Notes: a model not told the origin generated them from the sequence alone. 64,000 nt of DNA from Curvularia clavata (GCA_023920165.1 CP089274.1:2604001-2668000), one strand, 5' to 3'; positions 12,637 through 59,271 are shown, counted from the first letter of the stretch. Numbers and translations: made by a program.

Positions 12637-13234
12637 GGTGGACTGGTAGTGGGACTCCAAGGTTTACTTACAGGAAGACTTACAGGAAGACTGAATTGAT
12701 CAAGGACAGTGGATGTGGGCGAGGAATAAGTAACGTGTATATCTCCGTCCTCGAGTATAGAGGTGGCGGAGAGATGGGAACCATGGGTACCGAATCATCA
12801 CCACTTTTAACATTGGTCGACTTGAGGCCAAGGGTTTTGCATCTCCAAGACCCTGATTCGACCACGGTGTGTACTCGTCAATGGAACCAAGGGAGCAAAT
12901 GGCGTCGAGCAATACAGACCAACCACATGATGAACAACCACATAAGACATGCTGTGAAGGGGGGGAGGTATCAACTTAAATTCAACTACATAAAAACATA
13001 GGGCTCGGGCGGGGGTTTACATGTTTAGACACTAGGGGACAAAGAGGCTCATAACATTAGCAAGGAGATTTTGCTCGTAATCAAGACGAAATGCCACTTC
13101 ACATGCGGCTGCGGTAGGGCCTGGGAACACGTGGCTGGAACAGGCGATCCGGCAGACGGTTTCCGTACTGGTCGAAGCGGTAGTCCTCCTTTTGCTCAAT
13201 CCACACCTGCCGCACGTCAGCGTCGAGCTGACAC

Positions 13235-14476
13235 CTACAGCTTGCTACCGTAGCGGGGAGGGTAGCCAGTGTTGTAACCACTCACCTCGCGTTCGGCATA
13301 CTTCCTGTCCAACGGAACTGGTTGGGGATTTAGTATTTCTTCGTCGCCAAAACCTGCGTCTCCTTGGAACCTACGCGCATAGTGGGCGGCACCAATGGGT
13401 TGGGGTGCGCCGTATTCTGCGTATTGTCCTCCATAGGGGCCGTACTGACCTGGGCGGTGGGTTTGGCGGGCGCTGCTCTGCTGCCAGGTTTCGCGCTCTG
13501 GGAGACGCTCTTCAAATGCTTCGGCGGGGCGGCCTAGGGGCTCCGGATACAGGCGGTTCTGCTGGTAGGTCTCACGAGTCTCAATGGGATACTGAGAGCG
13601 ATAGTGGTCCTGCTGCTCGTAACGCTCGTCGAATTGGGTCTCGTAACGGGTGTCACGGCCGTGGTGCTCCCAGTGGCTGTCGTGGTGGTGGTGGTGGTGA
13701 GGAGGAGGTGGAGGAGGAGGAGCGCGCTCATCATAGTACTGGGGACCACGCTCGCGCTCGTCAACATAGACTTCACGGTGCTCCTGGTAATGAGCCGGGG
13801 GCTGACGGTCGCGCTCTACCCAAACATCACGGTGCTCCTCTACGTGTCTGGGAGCAGCGCCGTCACGCTCAATGTAGATGTCCCTGTCAATATGGGTCGT
13901 GTGGGTCGTGTTATGGACAGGAGCAGGGGCGGGAGCGGGAGGGGCCTCTTGGTGGATTTCAATGTCGACGTGGGTTTCCTTCTTGGAGTGCTTATGCTTG
14001 GGCTTGTGGGGTTCCTCGATGGGCTCCAGCGTGGTCAGGTAGCCAAGGACTTCGCTGAGACTCTGGTGGGCGATGCTGAGTTCCTTTTCCCTGTTCTCGA
14101 GCTTTTCCTTCTCGCTGAGGAGCCAGTAGACGCGGTGCCTCATGCCAACACGGCGGCCATCTTCAATGTCGCCAGCGACGCGTTCCGTGTGTGGAGCAAT
14201 GTTTTCGAGGGCGCCGCGGACGTCGCGCATGCAGCCGTAGACCCATTTGGACTTTTCCGGGTTGGCCTCGAGGATGTCGTGGATTTCGCGGACCGAGAGC
14301 AGACGGCGCACCTCTTCGAGATCAGAGCGGACGCGGCCGATGATGCGCACGTAGACGGCGTTGGATGGGCCGACGTCGCGCACACGTTTGGCCTTTGTCA
14401 GGAACTCAGCGAGCTTGTAGGCGCCGCCGAGGGCAGTGGCAGCGGCGCCGAGGGTGACGAGCTCTCCCTTGACCAT
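13235..14476 (-). CDS. Uncharacterised protein: HeLo/SesA-like N-terminal helical domain, His/Glu/Arg-rich repeats, C-terminal -SKL
   Basis: 413-aa intronless ORF with strong C/G third-position bias. The domain assignment is by visual resemblance only (MRHRVYWLLSEKEKLENREKELSIAHQSL). Confidence 0.8.
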   Translation of the reverse strand: MVKGELVTLGAAATALGGAYKLAEFLTKAKRVRDVGPSNAVYVRIIGRVRSDLEEVRRLLSVREIHDILEANPEKSKWVYGCMRDVRGALENIAPHTERVAGDIEDGRRVGMRHRVYWLLSEKEKLENREKELSIAHQSLSEVLGYLTTLEPIEEPHKPKHKHSKKETHVDIEIHQEAPPAPAPAPVHNTTHTTHIDRDIYIERDGAAPRHVEEHRDVWVERDRQPPAHYQEHREVYVDERERGPQYYDERAPPPPPPPHHHHHHDSHWEHHGRDTRYETQFDERYEQQDHYRSQYPIETRETYQQNRLYPEPLGRPAEAFEERLPERETWQQSSARQTHRPGQYGPYGGQYAEYGAPQPIGAAHYARRFQGDAGFGDEEILNPQPVPLDRKYAEREVSGYNTGYPPRYGSKL

Positions 14477-15151
14477 GACGGGCAGAGGGACGGGCGGTGG
14501 GCGAGGAAGCTGCCGGCAACGAGGAGAGATGGATCAATGGAGTGAAGGAGTGCCTGCGTCTCTGCGGGTACCTAGCGCGAGCATGCCGCGCAGGTTCAAC
14601 CGGCAGCAGAGTGGGGATGGGCGCTTTGGTGTGGTTGTGTGAGGAAAGTTGGGGGAGGTGTCAGTTCCAGCTCAGCTCAGGGCAGCATGGACAAGGGGCC
14701 CAGTGTTGGAGCTTTGGGAGGCTGGGGCGCTAATCCGCTTTGGGTGCTAGTCGGCTGCATCTCATCACCCAGCGCGACCAGCCCGAGGTCCCAGCACGCG
14801 TCGGTTGCTGGCTGTCTGTGTTCCTGGCTCCACCCTGCGCGAACTGCTCAGCCTGCTTGTTCTCTGCTGCGTCTCAGAGGGGCTTCGTCTTCGTCCGTCA
14901 ATCATCCGGCCGGTGCAGCCGCCGTGGCTGGGCCAGACGGAGCTGAGCCGGCTTGGGTAAACAACGCGTGCGAGCATTGTTGTTGTTGTTATTTGTTGAT
15001 GCGCCGCTCCTGCCCTGCCTTGGTTGCGATTGCCGACGCTGGGCTGACACAGGCCTGGATCATCCCCGTTGCACATGCCGGCTCCGTGACAACGCAGCTC
15101 AACCACAACACGACGACTCGATGCCAAAACCTTGATTTCTGCTCTGCTCTG

Positions 15152-16845
15152 CTATCTGCCGTACTTTGCAACAAATGCCCGCACCTTGGGATCGCTCAGG
15201 CTGAGCTCGCTGCCCTCGGCGTCGAGCAGATCCCGGTCCCGCTCCTCGAGCTCCGCCTCCATCTTCTTTAGCTGCACGTCCAGTTTGGGGTTAGTCAGGC
15301 TCACGCTCCGGAATGGCGCGTGCTTGAACAGTGCTCCCAGCATCACCTCCATGTCTGCATCTGCCCTGCTCGACCGTTCGGCCAGTTTCTCATGCGTGCC
15401 CGTTGCCGTAGACTCGTAGTGGTCCTGCAGTTTTTTGCCTCGTTCAACTTGGGCTTGCAGCAGCGAGTCCTGGAGGCTTTCCATGTTGTCATGGTTGAAC
15501 GAGATGCCTGCATGTCGCAGCGCATCTTGCAGCGCCACCGGCAGATCGAGCGTGTTGTTGGGCCTGAGCTTGACCATGGGTGTAAAGGCCGTTGTGGAGG
15601 GCTTCGCTCGTTTGTGTGCAGGCGTTGGAGCTGCTGCCGGCGCATCCATTTCAGGCATGCGTTTTGCTGCCGCCGCTTCAACATGTCGCAGTGCCTGCTG
15701 GAATTCGTCACAGTCCTGCGTGCTTGTAGCCACCGTATCCAGTCGCTTGCCCATGTACTCGAGCGTTGACAAAACCTATCCATGTTAGCAAGCCTACTGC
15801 CGAAGCCCAGTGGCACCTACATAGTTGAGCCATGCACTTCGTGCCTGTCTTCTGTCCCTGTCCCTGCGTTCTTTTACATCCGTCATTGGCTTCCGTATCT
15901 CATGCTCGACAACCATCTCAGCAACAGACGCAATCTCAGAGTGCAACTCCTCGAGTTCTGCTTGCAGCGCCGCTTTTTGTTCCTTAAACTCTGCCACTGC
16001 TTCACCGGACGCACTGGTTTGCGTTTGCTGAGCAACGTTGGTCAGGTAGATGGTATCTACGCGAGCCTTGATTTCAGCAGTGCGAAAGGAAATAATGGCC
16101 TTGCACCACTGCTCAATTGACTTTTCGTCATCGCTAGCCTCTGGCTCCGTCACAATCTGGGAAACCAAACCAGGAAGCCGGCTCAGGATTTGGTCATCTG
16201 ATGCAAACCGTTCTGATAGATAGCTGTTTAACATGGACTTGTCCCTCTCGCTCTCTCGCTGTGCATCCGCCACTTGCTCTGTGATGGATGTGGCAATATC
16301 ATCGACCTGCAATATCAGCAACATGGCTTGACTTCTGCATTGTCAGCTTACCGAAGTATCAAGCCTTGCCTTCTCCTGGCCTTCCTTTCTCTTCCTCTCG
16401 TTCCGCAGGTGCTCGGCATTCAGATTGGGCTTGTCAAGTCCTCGCAGCTTCATCAAAGCATCCTTTTGCGCCTCGAGCACTTTGCACTGCTCTTCAATGG
16501 CCGTAGTCGAACTCTGCAGAGACTCAATGGCTGATGCGATTTCGTGGTCCAAGATGGGCCTGGTGGGTTCACCCTCGCTCTCATACTGATGCAACAGTCC
16601 CTTCTTCTTCAACGTCTGGTAACTGGAGGAAAGTTAGTAACCGTCAGCCGTAGTGGCTGCTGCACATACAGCTCTAGCTCTTCCTTAGTCAACAAGGTGT
16701 CTTGGTGCAGGTACTCCTCAACCCAAGCTGCGGCTTTGTGATTTGTGTCCGCATCTTCGAACGCCAGCAGGATCCTGTCAAGATCTACCTTGAGGCCTCT
16801 TTCTTCGACCACGTTCAGCAAGTGATGAGCGGCTTGCTCCTCCAT
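15152..16845 (-). CDS. Coiled-coil protein, probable augmin subunit HAUS3-like, 4 exons
   Basis: Spliced N-terminus LLAFEDADTNHKAAAWVEEYLHQDTLLTKEELELYQTLKKKG resembles the HAUS3 N-terminal domain; long coiled coils; three GT-AG introns join the four ORF pieces. Confidence 0.65.
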
Positions 16846-17055
16846 GGCACTCGGTTGTGTGTCGCTGGTTGTTGTGTGACAAGGTGCGAAAGCAGTTAGG
16901 CTGTCTACATTCGTTACGGTGGGCGGGAGTTGCCAATCGCGCAGTCGCGTTTTCCACTTTGACGCGCTTCACCACCAAAGACTCAAGATTTGTGAAAAGA
17001 CTATTCCTAACTGCCAGTTCCCAAAAAGACTATTACTACTTCAGATTCAATCACA
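16846..17055. promoter_or_regulatory. Compact bidirectional promoter with MCB-like CGCG elements
   Basis: 210 bp between divergent ATGs; CGCG cores at 16938, 16946 (ACGCGA on minus) and 16963 (ACGCG). Confidence 0.5.
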
Positions 17056-18078
17056 ATGCCTCCCGCCGCACTCGAATCCGTGCCAACATCCGAAACCGAG
17101 AAAGATACTCGATCACAAAATACCACCCAACCCAGCAACCCCGCCCACGAAGAGCACCAATACCTCTCCCTCATCCGCGACATACTCTCCAATGGCGAGC
17201 ACCGTCCCGATCGCACCGGCACCGGTACATACGCCGTCCCCTTCCCCCCACAAATGCGCTTCTCCCTGTCCCGGCCCTCCAGCGACCCCTCGCAACCACC
17301 GCAACTCATCCTCCCCCTCCTCACCACCAAGCGTGTCTTCCTGCGCGCCGTAATCGGCGAGCTTCTGTGGTTCATAGCAGGCAGCACCCACAGCGCACCT
17401 TTATCCAGTGCCGGAATCAAAATCTGGGACGGCAACGGCAGTCGCTCGTACCTCGACAGCGTTGGTCTCTCGCACTACGAAGAAGGCGAGCTGGGTCCCG
17501 TCTACGGCTTCCAATGGCGGCACTTTGGCGCGGAATACAAAGGGCACGCACACGACTACACTGGCGAAGGCGTCGACCAACTCGCAGAGATCATCGACAA
17601 GTTAAAAAATAAACCTTACGACCGCCGCATCATTCTCTCCGCCTGGAACCCCGCTGATATCAAGAAAATGGCACTTCCACCTTGCCACATGTTTGCACAG
17701 TTTTACGTGAGTTTTCCGGGACACAAGCAAGGGGAGGAGAGGCCAAGAGGCGTACTACACTCGCTGTTGTATCAGCGCTCGTGTGACATGGGTCTCGGAG
17801 TGCCGTTTAATATCGCGTCGTATGCGCTACTGACGCATATGCTGGCGCATGTGTGCGATTTGATCCCAGGAACGTTCACGCATACCATGGGTGATGCCCA
17901 TGTCTATGCTGATCATGTCGAGGCGCTGAAAGTGCAACTGGAGCGTGAACCGAGAGAGTTTCCGGAACTGAAGATTAATAGGGAGATTGGGGGTAGTATA
18001 GATGGGTGGAAGGCGGAGGATTTTGAGGTCCTGGGATACAAGCCGCATGCGAGTATCGCGATGAAGATGAGCGTGTAG
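17056..18078 (+). CDS. CDC21: Thymidylate synthase
   Basis: [44 protein letters not shown] and [18 protein letters not shown] motifs; intronless. Confidence 0.98.
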
Positions 18079-18348: not shown

Positions 18349-19931
18349 TCAAGTCGGCAGCTCCTGCGCCTCGCTCCTCGGCCCATGATGATGCGCATAT
18401 TTTACACTTCCTGGTAACTCGCTCGTAGGACTCGCTGCATGCATTTCCGCCGTAGGCACTCCAGGAGAACCATTGTAACTCTGCTCTGCTCCATCATGCC
18501 CAGGCACATATCCGTATCCGGCCCCAGGACCAGCATACGCTTCTTTCTCTCCCATTTTCGCTGCTTTCCGTCTTCGCAGCCAGAAGATAGCGAAGCCGAT
18601 GGCGCCGAGTACGGCGATGCCACCGACGACTGGTCCAGCGATCCAGGCTTTGCTTGAGGAGGAAGAAGAGGAAGAGGAAGAGGCGCCGGAGCCACTGGGG
18701 CTATCAGTAGCAGAGCCCGAGTTGCTAGATGAAGAGTTTGAAACGCTCTTCCCATCGGTGACAGCGGCGTAAATGGCAGTTCCCAAATCACCAAGGATAC
18801 TCTCCGTCTTCTGCAGATAGCAATTGTTATATCCGCCGTCGAGCACTGTAGAAAAGAGCGCCGCTGTACACCCCTGATCGCTGGCCGCGCACGCATCCAT
18901 ACACGCCGTAAGGTTCTGTGCATGCAGATTTGTGATATTCTTTCCTGGATTCGTCTTCCCACACGAGATCTTGAACTGGGCACTGTTGGCGGTGGCCTGA
19001 TATAGTTTTTCGTCCGGACACTTTGTATCTGGGATGTCGAAGGAGATCATTTGGGCTGCGTGCATGATGCCTTGTTTCGATGTCGGAGCGACAAAGGCAG
19101 GCGTTTTCCCGTATTTCGGCCAGCAGTTTGCATAGCCGACTTGGAGGCCGGGGTTCCATGATACCGCGCGACAGAGGGGGTGTAGTCCCGCACACACCTT
19201 CAAGCATTCCTCGAGGGATTCGGTGTGGTAGAAGGCACGATAGGGTTCTTCGAGACAGTCGTACTCGTCGAAACAGTGCGGTGGCTCAGCAATGACCTTG
19301 CCGCAGTGTGTAGTGTAGGATACGCCGTTAACCCCAGGAAGGGCTTTGTCCTCCAAGTCCTTGTTCGGGCATTTCGTATCGTACCCTTTCATCTGGTCCG
19401 GGTTGGTAAGGAGGGCAGTGATGGCTTCTGGTGCGGGTGTCAAGGCGGCGGTAGAGACATTACTAGTTTTTAGCCAGCAGTGACCGCCAGGTGTTGTCCA
19501 GGTAGCGCCGAAACAACCTTCGCTCTCACCCCAGTAGCGGGAGCAGTGCTCTAAACATTCCGTGTAACTGGCGGTAAAGAACCAGACTCCTACTCCACTC
19601 GGCTCTCTTATTGCGTCTACGAGTTGTCAGTCATGGCGCTGCGGGAAGAAAGGTATCATAGGGTGCTCACCACTCAACGGTGCATTCTGCTTGCAGTACA
19701 GATTGAAGCCAAGTCCATTCTTTGACGTGTAGTTGTCTTGACAATCCGTGATTGTATCCTGCCGTATCGCGAGGTCGCGAGTGTGTGCTGCATCTGGGCG
19801 TACGGAAACTATAAGCGCGTCAGTACTCTATAATTATCAATCCTCCAGAAATTCAACATACTCGTAGGTGTTGCAAGAGCAGCGCTTAAGCATGCCAGTG
19901 CAACTAAGCTTTTTCTCGCCAGGGCCAACAT
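18349..19931 (-). CDS. Type-I membrane protein with three PAN/apple-like domains, Ser-rich stalk and single TM, 3 exons
   Basis: Signal peptide MLALARKSLVALACLSAALA; repeated C..C...C...CW/CY-L/P-K/Q units; SKAWIAGPVVGGIAVLGAIGFAIFWLRRRK TM; tail ending QELPT. Confidence 0.8.
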
Positions 19932-20882
19932 GCCGTACAGAATTTTGGGGCTCGTAAGGCGTCTTTCGCAACGGGCGAAAGTGCTGAGATGTAAAGACAG
20001 CAGCGGAGTCCCAGACTGCGGGAAAACGCTAGCTCGGGTTGAATTCCAGATATAATCCCCGCTCAAAAGGAAATAAGAGCGGCCTATCTCAAGCGGAACG
20101 GCGACACTATGCAGGTCAGGCGTCCATTGGTGGGTACTGCGACCGTTATGGCCCCCAAATCAGAACCGCCGTGAGCTCGAAAGATCGTCTCAACACTGCC
20201 CCAAAGTACATTGTAAAATATGCACTAGCTCCCAATTGACCAGTAGAGCAGGGTTATGAGTCGTCCAATTTCGCTTGGCCAAGCCTATAACGTGTATCCC
20301 CGTCTTGCATCCCTATCGTCTCTGAGACCTGTGCCTGGCTACAGCTTATCTGCGAGGTGATGATACAGTTCGTTCCTCACTAAGCGATTTGTCTTTCTTG
20401 GCCTTTTTGACTGCTTCTTTTGGATTGTCCAGTTGGGTGTGGGAATTTAAGAAGATCTCGCAGCATGATGCCTGTCATGACAGGGGAATGAAGGCCGTGC
20501 GTTTGCCAAGGCGAACACAAGGCGGAGCAATGCTATCTTTGGCGTCCACACGAGCTGCGACTCTAAGCAGGCTGTAGATATACGTCGACAATGACATACC
20601 CTGGCCATTGCTATTATTTCATACAAAAGTCCCCAGGAAGATCATGCATCTCCCTGAATCACAGCGAGAATTACACATCGTATCAGTGCCACTTCGACAC
20701 GCCTCATGCTCTCTTGTCATGGCAACATACACACAGAAACGCTGAATCTTGATGTAAAACTGTTGGATTACCACGCTGCTTTTGCAGACAACGACTTGGT
20801 ATCTAATGCAACCTGAACGCCCGACATGTTTTTCCCAGCCTGCAAAACCATAATGCAAGAACGCTGAACATTGCAAGTCCGC

Positions 20883-23009
20883 TCATCGGTGGCTGGTCTT
20901 TCCAATACCACGCTTTCCGGCAGTCTGGTGTATCGTTAGCAGGTGATTCTGTATTGAGATGTGAAGTGTAACTTACCAAGTGCTTGATCAGAGAGCCAGT
21001 CTGGTGCCTGTCGGCTTCACCCTGTCTGGCCATCCTGTTCATCTTCTTCTGCGACAACTTAGCCAGCTTCTCGGCCTTTGAAGCAGCCTCAACATCGGTA
21101 ACACCATCGTTCCTCCTGTTAGTGCTCTGGCTGCGGCCACGGCTCTTCGCGCGCTCGAGGGCTGACTTGGGTGTATCGATGTCCATAGCGTCGCCGCCAG
21201 GAGCTTCCGATCTTGAACGGGCCAAGCTACGTCCTCGGGCCTCTGCTTGGGCCTGTGCACGCTCGACAACCTTTGTAGTGTCGTATCCAAGGCTCTCAAG
21301 GTGCGATTCCATCTGCGACATTTGCTTCGCCTTCTTTGTCCTGGGAATGACGGCCCTGTTCTTCAGACTCTTGCGCATCTTGGCTTCGTTCCTGATAAGC
21401 TGCCTCTTTTCGCGAATCAGCTCGGCCTTGTATCGGATGTCTGCTTCCTCGGCATCCTCGACGTCGTCGTCCGAGTCATAGAATCCTTCTTCCTCCAGCT
21501 TCTCTTCCTCAGCCTCAAGCGCGGCAAGCTTAGCCTCGATGTCGGGATCAATGAAGTCATAGACGTTCTGGCCCTTGAACACTTCTGGAATACGGTCGTG
21601 CTTCCATTCGTCATTCTCAAGAAGGTAGTTCTTGCGAAGGTCAATGTTGTAAACACCAGCCCCACCATTCTCCTCTTCCAGATCACGCTCAAGGATGGGC
21701 CTATCGGGGTCGTCCTTGTCGTATTTCTTCTTGTTGAGCGCTGCTTCAGGGATAAAGGTCTCACGGGTTACGCCGCCCAATGGTTGCGCAACGTGAATTC
21801 GGCGCAACAGCTCACCAAGACGACCAGATGGCTCACCAGCGCTGTTGGTGCCGGCCTTAAGTTTCTCTGCATTACGAGCAGCAATCAGACGGTCACAAAC
21901 TGCGTTTCGCACAGCCATGACACCTTCAGTAGTGCTGCAAGAAAGCTCCAGCATCTCCACCTCGCCAGACTTGAGCATACCCTGCAGTTGAGCCTGTGTT
22001 TCGGGATCAAGCTGGCTAGGACGCATGAGATCAATCTTGTTGATAACGATAGAGATGAGCTTGTTTGCGAACAGAGGCTTAATGTTGTTGAAGAGAGCGA
22101 TTTGCGATGCAACCGAGTAACCGCACTGCTCACTGAGATCCATGAAGTAGAGGATATGGGCGCGGAGATGGGCAATAGCGCAAATGGACTGATGCTCAAT
22201 GGTGTTCATCTCCTCGAGAGCGTGGTCCAGAATACCAGGCGTGTCAACGGCCTGGAAACGAAGCATCTTGTAGTCGAAATGACCAACGTACAAGCTCTTG
22301 GTGGTAAAAGCATATGGCTGGACCTCAACATCGGCCCTGGAAATGGACTTCAAGAAGGATGACTTGCCGACGTTGGGGAAGCCAGAAATGACGAGCGTGC
22401 GAGTGTTGGGGTCGATAGATGGAAGACGACCCAAATGCTGCCTGACCTGCTCGAGGTAGACAAGAGGGTCTTTAAGCCTCTTGCAGATAGTAGCCATACG
22501 ACCAAGAGCAGCCCTCTTCAGCTGCTTGCACTGGAACAGAGACTGTCCATATTTGAGAAGACGAACATAGTCGCGCGCAACCGTCTCGATCAGCGACTTT
22601 GCAGTTGAGAGCTGACCAAGGGCAATGCGGAAGTGATCCGCATCGTAGAGAGTGTTGAGCAGATCGCGGTGGAACGGGTGGATGTCCTGCAGGCGGGGGA
22701 AGGCTTCGATGGTGGTGGAGAGGCGCTCGACGAAAGTTTCGGATGTGTACTTGACTTTTCGCGTGTAGAAGGCTCGAATTCTGCTAATCTTGAAGCCAGC
22801 ACGGATCTGTGTGGGCAACCTGAGTATTTTTCGTCAGCTACCTGGGCTCGGATACAGCATAGAGCTGCGCAAATCTCGGGCGCATGGGCGTGGTTTGCGC
22901 CCACACAGATGAGATGGGAAGCCTACCTTCTCTGTGTCCTGGAGAGCACAATGTCCAGGAACTCTTGGCTCGTGGGCACGGCGGGGATGTCCTTCCACTG
23001 GGTCTTCAT
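20883..23009 (-). CDS. NOG1: Nucleolar GTP-binding protein 1, 3 exons
   Basis: [47 protein letters not shown] and NKID motifs; last exon [13 protein letters not shown] with stop at 20883. Confidence 0.97.
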
Positions 23010-42954: not shown

Positions 42955-45900
42955 CTAACCAGAGAATCTAAACCGCGAAGCCTCCAGTCTACCAAGACCC
43001 TCTCTGGGGGCCACATTTCTCCGGCGGTAGCTAGTCGTGAAGTCTTGTAGGATCGTCCTGATCATCCTAACATCACCAGTCTGGATGCGTTGGCGAATGT
43101 TGTTAAGAAAGCGTTCACTTTCTTGGGGTGTGATGCTGCCCTGTGGTAACATGGCCACAGTGTTGGCAACCCACTGTGCGACTTGTTCAGGCATAAGCTC
43201 AAACAGATCCAGAAGCACGCCAGAGGAGTCGGCAAAACAGCCCTCAGGGAAACTGTACATCATACCCGTCATTATACGCTGCACAAGATCGACACCGGCA
43301 CCCATGACAAGCTGCTTAACGCGATCACGTATCTGCTCTGGAACTTCATGACGCGTATTATCAAAAGTGGATGAAGGCGATGAGTTGCGACCATAGCCGA
43401 GGAGATCGCGAAGGAAGTGCAGTACCGCGATGATGGGGTCCTCTTTGAGCAGGGTGAGGGAGCTGCAGGCTGCGAGGAGAATGGTCTCCATGAGCGGAGA
43501 CATGATAGACTCTGATGGGAAGTAGAGCACCATGTCGGCTGCGAGACGGAAGTAGTCCTCGATGAGATCAGGGAGTTCTTCCGGTGGCAGGTCACTGAGG
43601 ATTCTCAGGAAAGTCTTTGCTTGCTGCTCATAGAACTGGTAGACACTGTTTAGCAGATCTGGGTTAACATCTTCTACGCCCTGAGAGAATTCTCGCACAA
43701 TCGAGGCTGTTGCCCAAAGGAAGCATCCTTGTCTCGATTTGTCGAAGCCTTCAACCAGTTTCGTGGCAAGGGGCGCCAGAAGTGGTCGCATCGCTGTCTG
43801 GTAAGAAAGCACCATATACCGCCAGCACCTACATACACGCTCGAGGATCGGTATGCTTGTATGGAAATGGCTGATCATGTTTGCAAGAGTGTCGAAGATT
43901 TCTTGGCAGTACTTGACGGCTGGATGGTCTTGGCCTGGTGGTACCTCAGGGCGCACCATTTCAAAGAATATGGTGAGCAGGTTGATCTTGTCGGCAATCA
44001 GTTTCTGGTCTGGTTCGTCCTTGGCTTGTTGAGCGAGCTCAATCAAATGCGCCATAACAGGGTCAAGATAGAGCTTGAGTGTTGCATAGAGCTGGTCGTT
44101 GGGGACCTTGGCGACGACAGATGCAACACCTTCGGTAATCTCTTCCTGACTACTGATAGGCAGCTTGTTCAAGTTCTTTGCATAGAACTGCTGCAATGGG
44201 CCGACAAATGGGACCAACAGGCTTGCGCAGTCGTTGCAGAAGAACTTGAATGACAGGGCGGCAGCTCGGATAACATCCTTGGTGGAATGATCAAAAGCTG
44301 CCATGATGTAGTCCAATTGCATCTGTAGTGTGTCGGGGTGCTGAGCTGTCCATTCCGTGTACCTTCCGAGAGCCATTACAGCTTGGAAGCGCAGTTTGTT
44401 GTGGTCGGGTATGCCCGCAATGAGCGGAATCAGGCGTGGCAGCATGATGTTCTCATCCGGAGGCACCATGCGACCCATGGCCCGAACAGCAAATAAGGGT
44501 GCTTCCAGTTTCTGCCACTCAGGTACACTGTTCGGGCCAGCTTGAGCGCCGTAGATTTGGACCCATTGTTGAATGAGATCGTAGGGTTTTTGGAGACATT
44601 CGACAACACCCATGACCTCACAACAATCCTTGAGAACATCACCCATTTGGTGGCGGAACTCGCGAAACTTTTCCTCCTGCTCGCGATCACCCTCGAACAA
44701 ATCCTTGTCATCGCCACCGTCACCGTCCGGCTTGGGGAATTGAAGGTGGCCAATCATAATGTCGACGAGTTTGGAGTAAATGTCGACGCACTGATTGCGG
44801 GCCTCGGCGTATTTCTCGAGCGTGAGATACTGCTTGAGGTCGTACCAGAACTTGAATGTGTGGGAAATGGCATCTCTCTCCTTATCCAACGCGGCTATCG
44901 CCAATATGGCTTCGACCAGTGCACGGAAGTCGGTGGGAAGGCGCGCAATGAGGATTACCCAAGATTCTCCAGCCTCGGCAAATATCCTCGCAATGCCCTT
45001 GAACTTTTCAGAGTCCTCCTCTTGTGCTGCTTCTGCGAGCTTCGTCTGGAGGCTGATGACTTGGGGATAGAGGACCATTATCGAGTTGAGGGTTTCGTCT
45101 ACATCTCTGGTCTCGGCAAGGAGGGCGCTCAGACATTCCACCGCAGCCTCGAAAGGATCTTCGTGCGAGAGGCCATCAAAGATGATCTTCAGGAGAGCAG
45201 AGTTGATGATAGCGTCCAACGGGATCTCACGTATCCAGGAAGTGATGCATTGGAGTAATTGGGGATTCTGGGCGGCTGCGGCTAGGGGGCTGTTAGTGGG
45301 ATCGGGCTCAAGCGTATGAGGGGGCAAACGTACGTGAAGAGGTTCCATATCGTACGAGGAGTTCCAGGGCTTGTTGGGCGTTGTCTTCAATCAACTCAGC
45401 CGTCCTCATAGTCAACTCGTGTTCCTGACCACACCACATTAGACTACAACTCTGCTAGCATGCGTCGGCACCGCGGGGAATTGCCGTAGGCTGTAAATGG
45501 GGCGCGGCTCGATCGGACGTACTGTGAGTGCGATCTTACGTCCATGAGTGACTTCTTCGGGGAGAACGCGGAGAAAGTCGAGGACGCAAGGTAAGGTTGC
45601 TGGGTCGGAGCCGAGTGAGGTGACGATATCTTTGAGGACATCCTTCCACTCGGTCATCTGAATTGCGAGATTTGCCAGGCACACGCACAGCTGCAAGCGT
45701 ATCGGCTTGGGTCCAGCGTGGAATGTGGCCAAGTTTCGCATGATGGAGGCTCGCAGCTCTGGAAGCTGCGCGCGGGGCACTTGGTGCAGGTCGTAGACAA
45801 TCTGATGACCATTAGGAAGGGTGAATTTTGGTGAAGGGTACAGCGACCTACCTTGCCCTTGAGCGTGGTGGCAGCAAAGAGCTTGGCTGCTGCATCTGCA

Positions 45901-56448: not shown

Positions 56449-57372
56449 ACGAGAAATGATGATATCCTGAGCCACTTGTTCCTATCGAACGTATACGTCG
56501 CGAGTTCTTGGAGGGATTGATTGTTTAAAAACCTCCTCCTTTCTCCGTTCGGTATTCTTTGCATCTACATATATGGTCAATCTTGACGTAACCCTCACCA
56601 CTCTACGGGCGGCACCCCCCGCTTCCCACTGTACAATAGCTGGCGTTCATGGATGAAGACCGCATGAGGTTTAGAGAAAAAAAGGCATGGTGTTGGGCTT
56701 CTGGGTCTTTGGGCGACTAGCTGTGTATTGTATGTATGTAAGACGAATTGATGGAGCAAATTAATGATATTCGATCAACAAGATTGTTTTCTGTGACTTG
56801 AGCTGTTGTATCAAGACAAGAGAACGACACAGCACGAGTTCTCAGTACACTCCTACCCAGTCCTCACACAGTGGTGCGGCTTACAGTGGAGCCAATGCGC
56901 AGTGGAGGGGGCCCGCTCCTAGCGCGTGCCCCTGTAAACTGAACCCTTGTGCCTCAATCAACACGGTCGCCTCTACGCACCATTGTACTATACGGCCAGC
57001 GGCATGCGCCCTGGAATCCCTTACTAACGCTACGGCTACCGGAACGACTTTGCCTGCAGCTTCTTATTGATCGGCAGTAGGCTCTGCCTTGGCAGATGGG
57101 TCACGTTCCCTACCTCTTCTCTCACTTGAGAGGTGTCCTAAAGCGCCGAGTCGAGCTCCACCACCGCCGTTGTATATTACAGGGCCCCGGGTCAGCGTCT
57201 TTCCACCAAGCATATCGTTCCTTTTCTTTTACATGACACTTTGGCCCTTTGCATTCTGCCTGGTTTGATTCTCTAGCCAGCACGCAGGAGTGTTGTTGCT
57301 TGTCATCCCAAACAATACTTTTGCCATTGTTGATTTCAATGAGCGACCATAGTTCCCAGGAACCACCTCACC

Positions 57373-59271
57373 ATGCGTAGGATCAAGTTGCCCCGCGGGG
57401 GGCAGTACCAACAGCCCATGTCTCGACAACACAAGCGCATTCTACTCTATGCATTGGGCGCCGCCGTCTTGTTCGGCGTGTGCTACCGCTTCTTTGGCGA
57501 GCCCATCGACCCATTTGCCGTCCCGTTTGAAGACCACGAAGCATACATGCGCGAGGGACCCAGTCTCTCGAGCCTTGAATCTGAGCAGTCATACGACTGG
57601 CGCAAAGCCCCGTTTGTGAATCGCATCTCGTCCTATATACCGCTGCCGACCAGCAAGCCTCGTGTGCTCCCGCGCATTCAGGCTAACTACTTTCCCGAAT
57701 CGCGTGCACAACGGAAGCAGAGGGAGGAGCGAAGAATAGCAGTAAGAGATGTCTTTGAACGTACTTGGGACAGCTATCGGACGTTTGCTTGGGCGCAGGA
57801 TGAGCTCAAGCCCATCACGGCAGAGGGCGAGGAGAGTTTCGGCGGATGGGGCGCAACATTAGTGGATTCACTCGACACACTATGGATCATGGGTCTCCGA
57901 GACGAGTTCGACGAGGCCGTGGAAGCAGTCGCTATGATCGATTTTGGCAGAACGAACCTCACGAGTATCAGCGTCTTCGAAACGACAATCAGATACCTGG
58001 GGGGATTGCTGAGCGCATACGACATGAGCGAAATGCCCATCTTGCTTGAGAAAGCAATCCAGCTGGGCGAGATGCTCTATCGGGCGTTTGACACGACGAA
58101 CAACACGCCGCTGGGCTGGATGAGCGTGGAGAAGGCCAAGAGGCCAGGGAGAGACGCGTTCGATGCCGAAACGAATATATGCTTTGCTTGCCTTGGTTCG
58201 TTGACCATGGAGTTTACACGCCTTGCGCAGATCACATCAGAGCCAAAATACTACGATGCCGTGGCCAGAGTCACCCGACTTATGGATCGTGCCCAGAACA
58301 CTACGAAGCTGCCAGGACTCTGGCCGACCATGGTGAATACCGCGCAAGAGGACTTTAGCCAGTCAAGCTCCTTTTCTATAGGTGCGCTTGCAGATAGCAC
58401 GTACGAGTACTTCCCCAAGATGCATGCGTTGCTGGGTGGCGTGGAGCCAGTGTACGAGAAGCTGTATCGCGACTCTGCGAAGAAGATTGATGAGCACATG
58501 CTTTTCCGGCCCATGGTGCCTGACACGGTGCATGGCGAGGACCTATTGCTCTGCGGCGACGTCTCTGCTTACGCCGATGAAGTCACTCTAAGCCCAACCA
58601 TGCAGCATCTCACCTGCTTCATCGGCGGCATGTTCGGTCTAGCTGGCCGTATCTTCTCCATGCCAAACCACGTCGACATCGGCGCGAAGCTTACCAAAGG
58701 CTGCATCTACTCCTACGCCGCAACCCCTACCGGTATCATGCCCGAAACTTTCGACATGGTCCCTTGTAAATCGCGCACCTCATGCCCATGGAACCAGACC
58801 TCCTGGGAAGAAACCGTCATGATGCACTACAGCACCAAATATGTCGACACCATCGAAGCCGCAGTCAAAAAATACAACATCCCCCAATCCTTCACAAACA
58901 TTCGCGACAAACGTTATCTCCTCCGCCCCGAAGCCATCGAATCCGTCTTCATCATGTACCGCATTACGGGTGACCGCAGCTACCTCGACAGCGCATGGAG
59001 CATGTTCAATGCCATTGTTGCAGCGACAAAGACACCATATGCCTACGGCCAGGTCAAAGACGTCACATTCTCCGCATCGTCATCGTCGAGAACATCGGGA
59101 GAGATTCCTTACACCAGAGAGGACAACATAGAAGATAAGATGGAGTCGTTTTGGACGGCCGAGACGCTCAAGTACTTTTATCTGATTTTTAGTCCGAGAG
59201 ATATGATTAGTTTGGATGAGTGGGTGTTTAATACCGAGGCGCATCCTTTTAGGAGGCCGAAGGCGAGGTAG
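57373..59271 (+). CDS. Class I alpha-1,2-mannosidase, glycoside hydrolase family 47
   Basis: Type-II TM; AWAQDELKP; GATLVDSLDTLWIMG; FETTIRYLGGLLSAY; DSTYEY; LRPEAIES; MESFWTAETLKY; NTEAHP. Confidence 0.96.
   Translation: MRRIKLPRGGQYQQPMSRQHKRILLYALGAAVLFGVCYRFFGEPIDPFAVPFEDHEAYMREGPSLSSLESEQSYDWRKAPFVNRISSYIPLPTSKPRVLPRIQANYFPESRAQRKQREERRIAVRDVFERTWDSYRTFAWAQDELKPITAEGEESFGGWGATLVDSLDTLWIMGLRDEFDEAVEAVAMIDFGRTNLTSISVFETTIRYLGGLLSAYDMSEMPILLEKAIQLGEMLYRAFDTTNNTPLGWMSVEKAKRPGRDAFDAETNICFACLGSLTMEFTRLAQITSEPKYYDAVARVTRLMDRAQNTTKLPGLWPTMVNTAQEDFSQSSSFSIGALADSTYEYFPKMHALLGGVEPVYEKLYRDSAKKIDEHMLFRPMVPDTVHGEDLLLCGDVSAYADEVTLSPTMQHLTCFIGGMFGLAGRIFSMPNHVDIGAKLTKGCIYSYAATPTGIMPETFDMVPCKSRTSCPWNQTSWEETVMMHYSTKYVDTIEAAVKKYNIPQSFTNIRDKRYLLRPEAIESVFIMYRITGDRSYLDSAWSMFNAIVAATKTPYAYGQVKDVTFSASSSSRTSGEIPYTREDNIEDKMESFWTAETLKYFYLIFSPRDMISLDEWVFNTEAHPFRRPKAR

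Follow-up and report, generated by a model that had tools for sequence, protein, structure and literature searches.

We describe a gene on the minus strand of a 64,000-nt stretch of Curvularia clavata DNA (GCA_023920165.1 CP089274.1:2604001-2668000; this whole stretch is called the window, and positions are counted from its first letter). The gene contains an open reading frame (ORF) at 13235..14476 (minus) that runs from an ATG start to a GSKL end and encodes 413 amino acids, according to the ORF listing and its translation. A first-pass annotation had read this ORF as a HeLo/SesA-like helical domain, followed by alternating-hydrophobic motifs and a type 1 peroxisomal targeting signal (PTS1), and had proposed a self-assembling effector of peroxisomes or Woronin bodies. 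The ORF and all of the listed motifs are present as described (HVDIEIH at residues 169-175, HIDRDIYIERD at 195-205, HRDVWVERD at 215-223 and HREVYVDERE at 233-242, with a Y/G/Q-rich stretch beginning at residue 343). The SKL end holds in that the ORF really stops there, but the last 16 residues (VSGYNTGYPPRYGSKL, 13238..13285) come from a retained intron.

Gene structure and transcript forms

The minus strand reads GTGAGT straight after the ...YAERE codons, forming the donor GAG/GTGAGT. Some 79 nt downstream of the donor is a CAG, preceded at a distance of 14 nt by a CTGAC branch-site motif, and past this 79-nt intron another frame encodes VWIEQKEDYRFDQYGNRLPDRLFQPRVPRPYRSRM and a stop. When the intron is retained, translation enters it for 16 codons and then stops, which gives the 413-amino-acid protein ending in SKL; when it is removed, a conserved 35-residue second exon is added, and the product is a 432-amino-acid protein ending in -RSRM. 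The features of the locus, in the order of transcription, are as follows.

14477..14678 (minus): 5' untranslated region (UTR); RNA contigs stop between 14627 and 14678
13286..14476 (minus): coding exon 1, 397 codons, from ATG to ...YAERE (ORF, donor and RNA splice joint)
14012..14476 (minus): N-terminal helical-bundle domain, residues 1-155, with a Gly/Ala-rich first helix (predicted by AlphaFold2)
13727..13984 (minus): repeat region, approximately residues 165-250, with units of the form [H/E][R/E][D/E]-V/I-W/Y-V/I-[E/D] and Pro-rich spacers (sequence; predicted local distance difference test, pLDDT, <60)
13682..13720 (minus): P7-H6 low-complexity run, residues 253-265 (sequence)
13318..13449 (minus): optional in-frame intron (exitron) of 132 nt, which removes approximately residues 343-386, the Y/G-rich stretch (RNA joint)
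13207..13285 (minus): 3' intron of 79 nt, GTGAGT...CTGAC...CAG, both spliced and retained (RNA joints, sequence)
13235..13285 (minus): intron-encoded alternative C-terminus, VSGYNTGYPPRYGSKL plus TAG, with the first putative PTS1 (ORF, related loci)
13099..13206 (minus): coding exon 2, VWIEQKEDYRFDQYGNRLPDRLFQPRVPRPYRSRM plus TGA, ending RSRM, with the second putative PTS1 (sequence, conservation in relatives)
12957..13098 (minus): 3' UTR to the poly(A) site (RNA contig ends near 12957; run-of-T loose end in run X12)

Both forms are seen in RNA. Logan contigs of four public runs, two recorded as metatranscriptomes and two guessed to be RNA, were mapped to 12950-14700. The joint that removes the 79-nt intron (13203 to 13283, cut +3; GT..AG on the minus strand) is found in all four runs, at depths of 5.5, 10, 13.4 and 2.2, and an unspliced contig covering 13179-13312 is found in three of the four (depths 7.57, 13.7 and 22.3). 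In these three runs, which come from three studies, the retained and spliced contigs have similar depths; contig depth is a rough guide and is unsuited to ranking, so we claim only that both forms occur at comparable depth. The 132-nt joint (13317 to 13450, also GT..AG on the minus strand) appears in two of the four runs, at depths of 4 and 4.7 versus 10.2 and 12.4 for the unspliced sequence. Contig cover stops at approximately 12957, where run X12 has a poly(T) loose end, and at approximately 14627-14678, and this bounded cover together with the poly(T) end fits a polyadenylated transcript better than contaminating DNA. The gene is thus expressed, and it has two exons and two main messenger RNA (mRNA) forms; the 132-nt splice is minor.

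Annotations of this gene in public models differ at both optional introns, since one predicted protein from Alternaria tenuissima (P0012) lacks exactly the stretch that is cut by the minor 132-nt splice (window 13318..13449). The public models are inconsistent, some spliced and some unspliced, and could be corrected.

Two further observations concern the transcribed region. In the 5' UTR, one upstream ATG opens a 16-codon upstream ORF (14534..14584, minus) before the main start. On the opposite strand there are two long open frames, at 13081..14058 (plus, 325 amino acids) and 13538..14545 (plus, 335 amino acids), which are probably a by-product of the gene's biased, repeat-rich codon content; all of the RNA joints at this locus have GT..AG on the minus strand.

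Putative C-terminal signals of the two isoforms

Both ends fit the PTS1 consensus [SAC][KRH][LM(IF)], the retained form with -SKL and the spliced form with -SRM, and therefore every isoform carries a candidate import signal. Basic residues can be read upstream of both tripeptides (...PPRYGSKL and ...RVPRPYRSRM); upstream positive charge is given as the main enhancer of PTS1 function in PMC9542071.

Relatives at E<=0.001 number 144. Among the 120 matches listed, all are without a Pfam domain and every named relative is hypothetical or uncharacterized; their genera are those of Pleosporales (Decorospora, Alternaria, Pyrenophora, Parastagonospora, Plenodomus, Ascochyta and others). The C-termini of the relatives are of two kinds, which either stop a few residues past EREV, as in the unspliced reading, or continue into WIEQKEDYRFDQYGNRLPDR...RSRM. 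Counted over 121 family proteins, the most frequent ends are SRM (36), SKL (17), SRL (17), SKF (7) and SRI (5). A strict pattern, [SAC][KRH][LMIF], is matched by 48 of the 73 unspliced-type ends and by 39 of the 48 other ends, which are mostly spliced, and four more of the latter end in TRL. The background rate of the strict pattern, taken from stop-delimited frames of at least 10 residues in the window, is 15 of 2875 (0.5 %). The PTS1-type ending on which the first-pass annotation had staked its reading is thus conserved in orthologues, and it is found in both splice forms. The unspliced-type ends that do not match are concentrated in the most distant relatives. The tails of the unspliced type are diverse in length and sequence, with the frame and the signal kept; examples are SGHRYSKL, RAFRRSRL, SAHRHAFIRSKF, RSYPYPKSRM and WRSRL.

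Genomic DNA of relatives was taken from metagenome contigs. Eleven genomic loci are listed, with the window included, and four further loci are spliced transcript contigs; L001 and L002 have the same ends and intron length and were counted once, L019 gave no intron sequence, and the intron was extracted from nine distinct loci. In seven of these nine, both ends are strict PTS1 matches (SKL/SRM in five, SKF/SRM and SRL/SRM in one each). Of the other loci listed, two combine SRM on the spliced form with GRL or PRM on the retained one, and the two most distant have a PTS1 on the spliced end only. Intron length lies between 55 and 87 nt. When the five Pleosporaceae-like introns are compared, they are set apart before the stop by 3-nt indels and by synonymous substitutions (CTG/CTC, CGC/CGT, TAC/TAT), with the frame and the S-K-L stop kept, whereas after the stop they vary freely. 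This is the pattern expected of selected coding sequence inside an intron, and by this comparison the intron-encoded tail evolves like coding sequence. Exon 2 is highly conserved in the relatives, far more so than the intron tail.

This is an expressed gene of Pleosporales, and we consider it probable that its protein is imported into peroxisomes and is made as two PTS1-bearing isoforms. Import would most likely proceed through the C-terminal PTS1 as read by Pex5, and our strongest inference is this address, maintained by selection as a PTS1 on every isoform. Several points weigh against this reading. The localisation of family members is a prediction from sequence, all named relatives are "hypothetical", and a full-text literature search for SNOG_12581 returned no paper. 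A hydrophobic N-terminal helix is unusual for a matrix protein. The proportion of RNA that retains the intron is poorly constrained, as the depths are rough and unspliced pre-mRNA could contribute, and the retained form of more distant relatives lacks a PTS1, which makes the additional, intron-encoded signal a subclade feature. Finally, the composition of the disordered part (Pro/Glu/Arg/His/Tyr) differs from that of the Gly/Ser/Thr-rich dehydrin-like proteins, as these are described in PMC3788798.

Some of the same observations could be explained if only the spliced -SRM protein were functional, with the retained-intron RNA as splicing noise and its -SKL end as a harmless by-product. The stronger conservation of exon 2 over the intron tail, the missing PTS1 in the retained form of distant relatives and the one run of four that shows the spliced contig alone would all agree with this. 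The explanation is nonetheless unlikely in our judgement, because noise would not readily account for a strict PTS1 on 48 of 73 retained-type ends against a 0.5 % background, for tails that vary in length and sequence yet keep frame and signal, for coding-part indels in multiples of three accompanied by synonymous changes, or for the similar depth of retained and spliced contigs in three runs from three studies.

A different alternative concerns the address itself: the C-terminal tripeptide might be masked or otherwise used, and the protein might act in the cytosol or at another membrane by way of its N-terminal helix. The amphipathic character of that helix, which could direct the protein elsewhere, would suit such a role, as would the occurrence of paralogues of the domain without PTS1 under the same species names, and the peroxisomal address is, after all, sequence-derived. 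Two independent ends, however, keep the textbook PTS1 pattern together with upstream basic residues across many species, and to our knowledge a requirement for precisely [SAC][KRH][LMIF] at a free C-terminus is peculiar to this function. We therefore regard a non-peroxisomal protein as quite improbable, and retain the reading of a peroxisomal protein with two tagged isoforms.

One metatranscriptome contig among the relatives (L014) reads ...VWVEQKEDYLRRVREQAARPLLPARVRLRA at the end of its match, with the PTS1 lost, and the protein P0097 ends alike. This may reflect either a frame-shifting alternative splice within exon 2 or an assembly error.

Helical bundle, repeats and the HeLo question

The AlphaFold2 model, which was built from 150 aligned sequences, has helices at residues 6-60, 63-71, 73-105 and 112-150, with pLDDT >90 for residues approximately 40-150. 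The spliced homologue P0003, 85 % identical, was modelled as well and has helices at 6-33, 35-60, 63-71, 73-98 and 112-150, with a break at residue 34. Confidence is lower for the first helix (pLDDT 45-84). The highest Kyte-Doolittle mean over 19 residues is 1.07, at the very N-terminus; this is below the usual transmembrane threshold and argues against a classical transmembrane anchor. A homodimer prediction for residues 1-160 scored 0.01 against a mark of 0.32, which speaks neither for nor against a dimer.

Residues 160-413 have no predicted secondary structure (pLDDT 43-67 in AlphaFold2), and Pro makes up 12 % of this part, Glu 11 %, Arg 10 %, His 9 % and Tyr 8 %. The exon-2 module, at pLDDT 64-72 in the model of the spliced homologue, is the sole part beyond the N-terminal domain to reach such values. 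A loose form of the repeat pattern occurs three times in residues 159-413, compared with a mean of 0.0165 in shuffled sequences, and none of 2000 shuffles reached three. In orthologues the repeats are kept as units of the E-R-E-V-W-V-E type with G-P-R-R-like spacers, and their number varies by species, from 0 to 5 pattern matches per protein (n=123 proteins). The last unit straddles the exon junction (ERE/VWIE). The P7-H6 run, which had also been taken for a functional feature, is without counterpart in most relatives and is thus not conserved, and its length varies between sequencing runs (at 13682, -3 nt in X10 and X9 or -6 nt in X12 and X13, relative to the window). The amyloid role that had been suggested for the repeats fails to gain ground, since they are predicted to be disordered and no NLR (nucleotide-binding oligomerization domain-like receptor) gene was found among the 28 window ORFs scanned; self-assembly or an amyloid role is not supported by the computed results.

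An exhaustive phmmer search at E<=0.001 gave 212 cluster representatives. In nearly all of these the match is confined to residues approximately 7-155, with tails of 200-900 residues, and no Pfam family was found at E<=0.01 among the 40 such relatives scanned, which are up to 938 amino acids long. On these searches, the domain defines a large Ascomycota family without a Pfam model, none having been assigned to any member scanned. The domain tree gathers every strict-PTS1 row, 39 in total, into a single 67-row clade (support 99), and the remaining 83 rows are without a strict PTS1. The PTS1 clade includes Dothideomycetes outside Pleosporales, and Clonostachys. Several species, judged by name, hold a PTS1 member together with paralogues lacking it (e.g., Boeremia, Neocucurbitaria, Periconia, Aaosphaeria and Lojkania).

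Two sequence features of the family may be mentioned here. Many of the N-domain paralogues without PTS1 (P0188, P0205, P0210, P0217, P0218, P0225, P0239 and others) have a conserved basic tail (RRRRAR..F, RRA[KR]QDL...), which hints at a different shared C-terminal signal. Several polar residues are near-invariant throughout the family (D52, E55, R58, R115, W118 and H137 in query numbering; alignments A1, A3 and A4); these could make up a buried polar network or, alternatively, a binding site.

The first-pass annotation had called residues 1-150 HeLo/SesA-like. A confident helical bundle is indeed predicted there, but no profile matches it at threshold, and the likeness to HeLo consists of weak leads only. 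In the rival that follows from that annotation, the domain would be a four-helix membrane-permeabilising module of the HeLo/HELL/MLKL type, and the protein would be targeted to peroxisomes or Woronin bodies, there to serve as an effector of cell death or of septal plugging, with the repeats as an amyloid-like trigger. The general features are suggestive: there are four helices in approximately 150 residues, and the first is hydrophobic and rich in small residues. The Pfam scan of the query, however, gave no family at E<=10, and thus none of PF14479, PF17111, PF17107 and PF22215. Sub-threshold matches to HeLo, consistent in register, were obtained with 7 relatives of 113 and with 4 of 98, the best at 14.9 bits against a cut-off of 23.2, and MLKL_N matches one of the 113, also below its cut-off. 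GatC, an unrelated small helical protein, matches 7 of the same 98 relatives (best E 6e-4), and the recurrent weak HeLo matches among homologues are therefore at the level of noise and count for little. The other profile searches gave little: a search of PDB sequences returned chance rows only (huntingtin poly-Q at E 0.62, GatC at E 1.2), a profile from the mixed alignment A1 returned the close family only, all without Pfam domains, and is uninformative on a HeLo link, and the 114 matches to a profile built on distant members (A3) likewise lack Pfam domains throughout.

The proposed check by AlphaFold and Foldseek yielded the helical bundle in AlphaFold2, and Foldseek returned nothing at E<=0.001. 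In VIA-align the best Z is 10.3, below the caution mark of 13 for helical proteins, and the top rows are generic bundles, i.e., designed 3-helix bundles (Z 10.2, root-mean-square deviation 2.6 over 100 residues), vinculin, talin, FAT and ApoE. A wheat resistosome chain from a coiled-coil NLR (CC-NLR) is also present at Z 8.2, which favours the HeLo-type rival but is tied with many others. Neither HET-s nor MLKL is among the 50 VIA-align rows listed, an absence that is no evidence of different folds. The nearest named clusters in a language-model search contain members with PigL_N/PF17111 (10-32 %), SesA (13 %) or HeLo (56 %), and although these point in the direction of the rival, their scores of 0.81-0.84 are all under 0.9 and serve as leads only. 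The UniRef name of two family members, "Fungal N-terminal domain-containing protein", points the same way; we take this name to belong to PF17111.

Genomic context also bears on the question. In PMC9815663, PF17111 is equated with HeLo-like, and HeLo-like genes are described as NLR-linked, with amyloid motifs. The gene described here is a conserved orthologue amid housekeeping genes, which is unlike that description. The 28 scanned ORFs of the window, each of at least 130 residues, do not include a NACHT or NB-ARC gene, although short exons of an intron-rich gene could escape such a scan. A literature search on HeLo together with peroxisomes or Woronin bodies gave, among the papers listed, none that links HeLo domains to peroxisomes. 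Overall, the protein resembles HeLo, HeLo-like (HELL, PF17111), SesA and MLKL proteins in its N-terminal bundle of approximately 150 residues with a hydrophobic lead helix and a non-globular C-terminal part, in its restriction to filamentous Ascomycota, and in the weak language-model and naming leads. It differs from them in having no threshold profile match, no specific structural match and no NLR gene found nearby, in its C-terminus, which would be a PTS1 in place of an amyloid signalling motif, and in being conserved as an orthologue. With the repeats predicted to be disordered as well, we find a HeLo-type effector unlikely and HeLo membership unproven.

Still less probable, in our opinion, is a combination of the two ideas, in which a very divergent membrane-attacking bundle of the HeLo/MLKL type would be sent into the peroxisome lumen. 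The additional, intron-encoded PTS1 would then keep every isoform out of the cytosol, and the peroxisomal or Woronin-body membrane would be permeabilised or remodelled from inside. If true, a lumenal module of this kind would be an organelle-directed executioner of a sort not described so far.

Proposed function, related systems and surroundings

For the favoured reading of a peroxisomal protein with two tagged isoforms, the following steps can be proposed. Retention of the last intron would yield the 413-amino-acid -SKL protein and its removal the 432-amino-acid -RSRM protein, and both would be imported via Pex5. The retained and spliced isoforms differ by the conserved WIEQKEDYRFDQYGNRLPDR module, and the minor splice also drops the Y/G-rich stretch. 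Within the peroxisome, the N-terminal bundle, with its amphipathic and Gly/Ala-rich first helix, would most likely attach to the membrane from its lumenal side, or else to a partner. The repeat region, rich in Arg/Glu/His/Tyr, might in turn serve as a disordered scaffold or protectant of multivalent character, in analogy to the peroxisome-associated disordered stress proteins of Alternaria, to which it is unrelated. This lumenal step is a guess, and we hold it to be doubtful.

PTS1 isoforms made by splicing are known in fungi, and in the known cases one isoform is cytosolic and one peroxisomal. Freitag et al. (2012) reportedly described fungal PTS1 isoforms that arise from alternative splicing or read-through. 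The gene described here resembles such cases in that removal of a 3' intron decides the peroxisomal signal at the end of the mRNA, and is unlike them in that both forms are PTS1-tagged, so that splicing would alter the body of the protein and not its address. A PTS1 generated through alternative 3' splicing is described for malate dehydrogenase of Yarrowia (PMC3372373). A cryptic PTS1, with one cytosolic and one peroxisomal isoform, does not describe this gene, in which the retained and the spliced form alike have a PTS1-type end. Among the papers listed by a literature search on PTS1 and intron retention in fungi, none is about this family.

HEX-1, the Woronin-body protein to which the ORF had been likened, is a PTS1-bearing protein specific to filamentous Ascomycota and has an eIF5A-like beta fold. 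The present protein shares the signal and the taxonomic restriction, but the analogy goes no further, as its folded part is an all-helical bundle, it has a disordered region, and it gives no HEX-1-type Pfam match.

The dehydrin-like proteins were also considered as relatives. PMC3788798 describes AbDhn1 and AbDhn2 of Alternaria brassicicola as disordered, peroxisome-associated stress proteins, and notes the failure to find a peroxisomal targeting signal in DprA and DprB of Aspergillus fumigatus. According to the same source, this group is largely disordered, repeat-bearing and peroxisome-associated, as the present protein would be, and AbDhn2 also has an optional in-frame intron; the group is further described as carrying DPR motifs, as rich in Gly/Ser/Thr and poor in Trp, and as being without a folded N-domain (PMC3788798). 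The protein described here is rich in Pro/Glu/Arg/His/Tyr, has Trp-containing repeats and is without a Pfam match. A dehydrin-like identity was rejected on composition and on the motif description given there, the DPR motif having been compared by description and not residue by residue (PMC3788798).

If confirmed, the gene would provide an example of a short intron with its own coding tail and targeting signal, where splicing changes the content of a protein and not its destination. This would be the reverse of the known fungal cases, in which splicing adds a peroxisomal isoform beside a cytosolic one. It would also add a lineage-specific peroxisomal protein that is conserved across Pleosporales, an order with many crop pathogens. 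The protein is without an enzyme-like domain, and would thus hint at an uncharted structural, protective or membrane role of peroxisomes. Its N-terminal domain would stand for a large family in Ascomycota, which numbers 212 cluster representatives and in which one species name may cover several paralogues.

The surroundings of the gene are ordinary and of a housekeeping nature. The 28 scanned ORFs of the window include eIF3g and Tim17 as well as the following.

17011..18078 (plus): thymidylate synthase
18349..19626 (minus): PAN-domain protein
20803..22833 (minus): NOG1 GTPase
42955..45390 (minus): transportin/importin-13-like protein
57343..59271 (plus): GH47 mannosidase

The upstream neighbour of the gene, at 15152..16342 (minus), is a coiled-coil-like protein represented by two neighbouring open frames of 207 and 182 amino acids, and Pfam gives it only a weak match to CATASP (E 8.5e-4).

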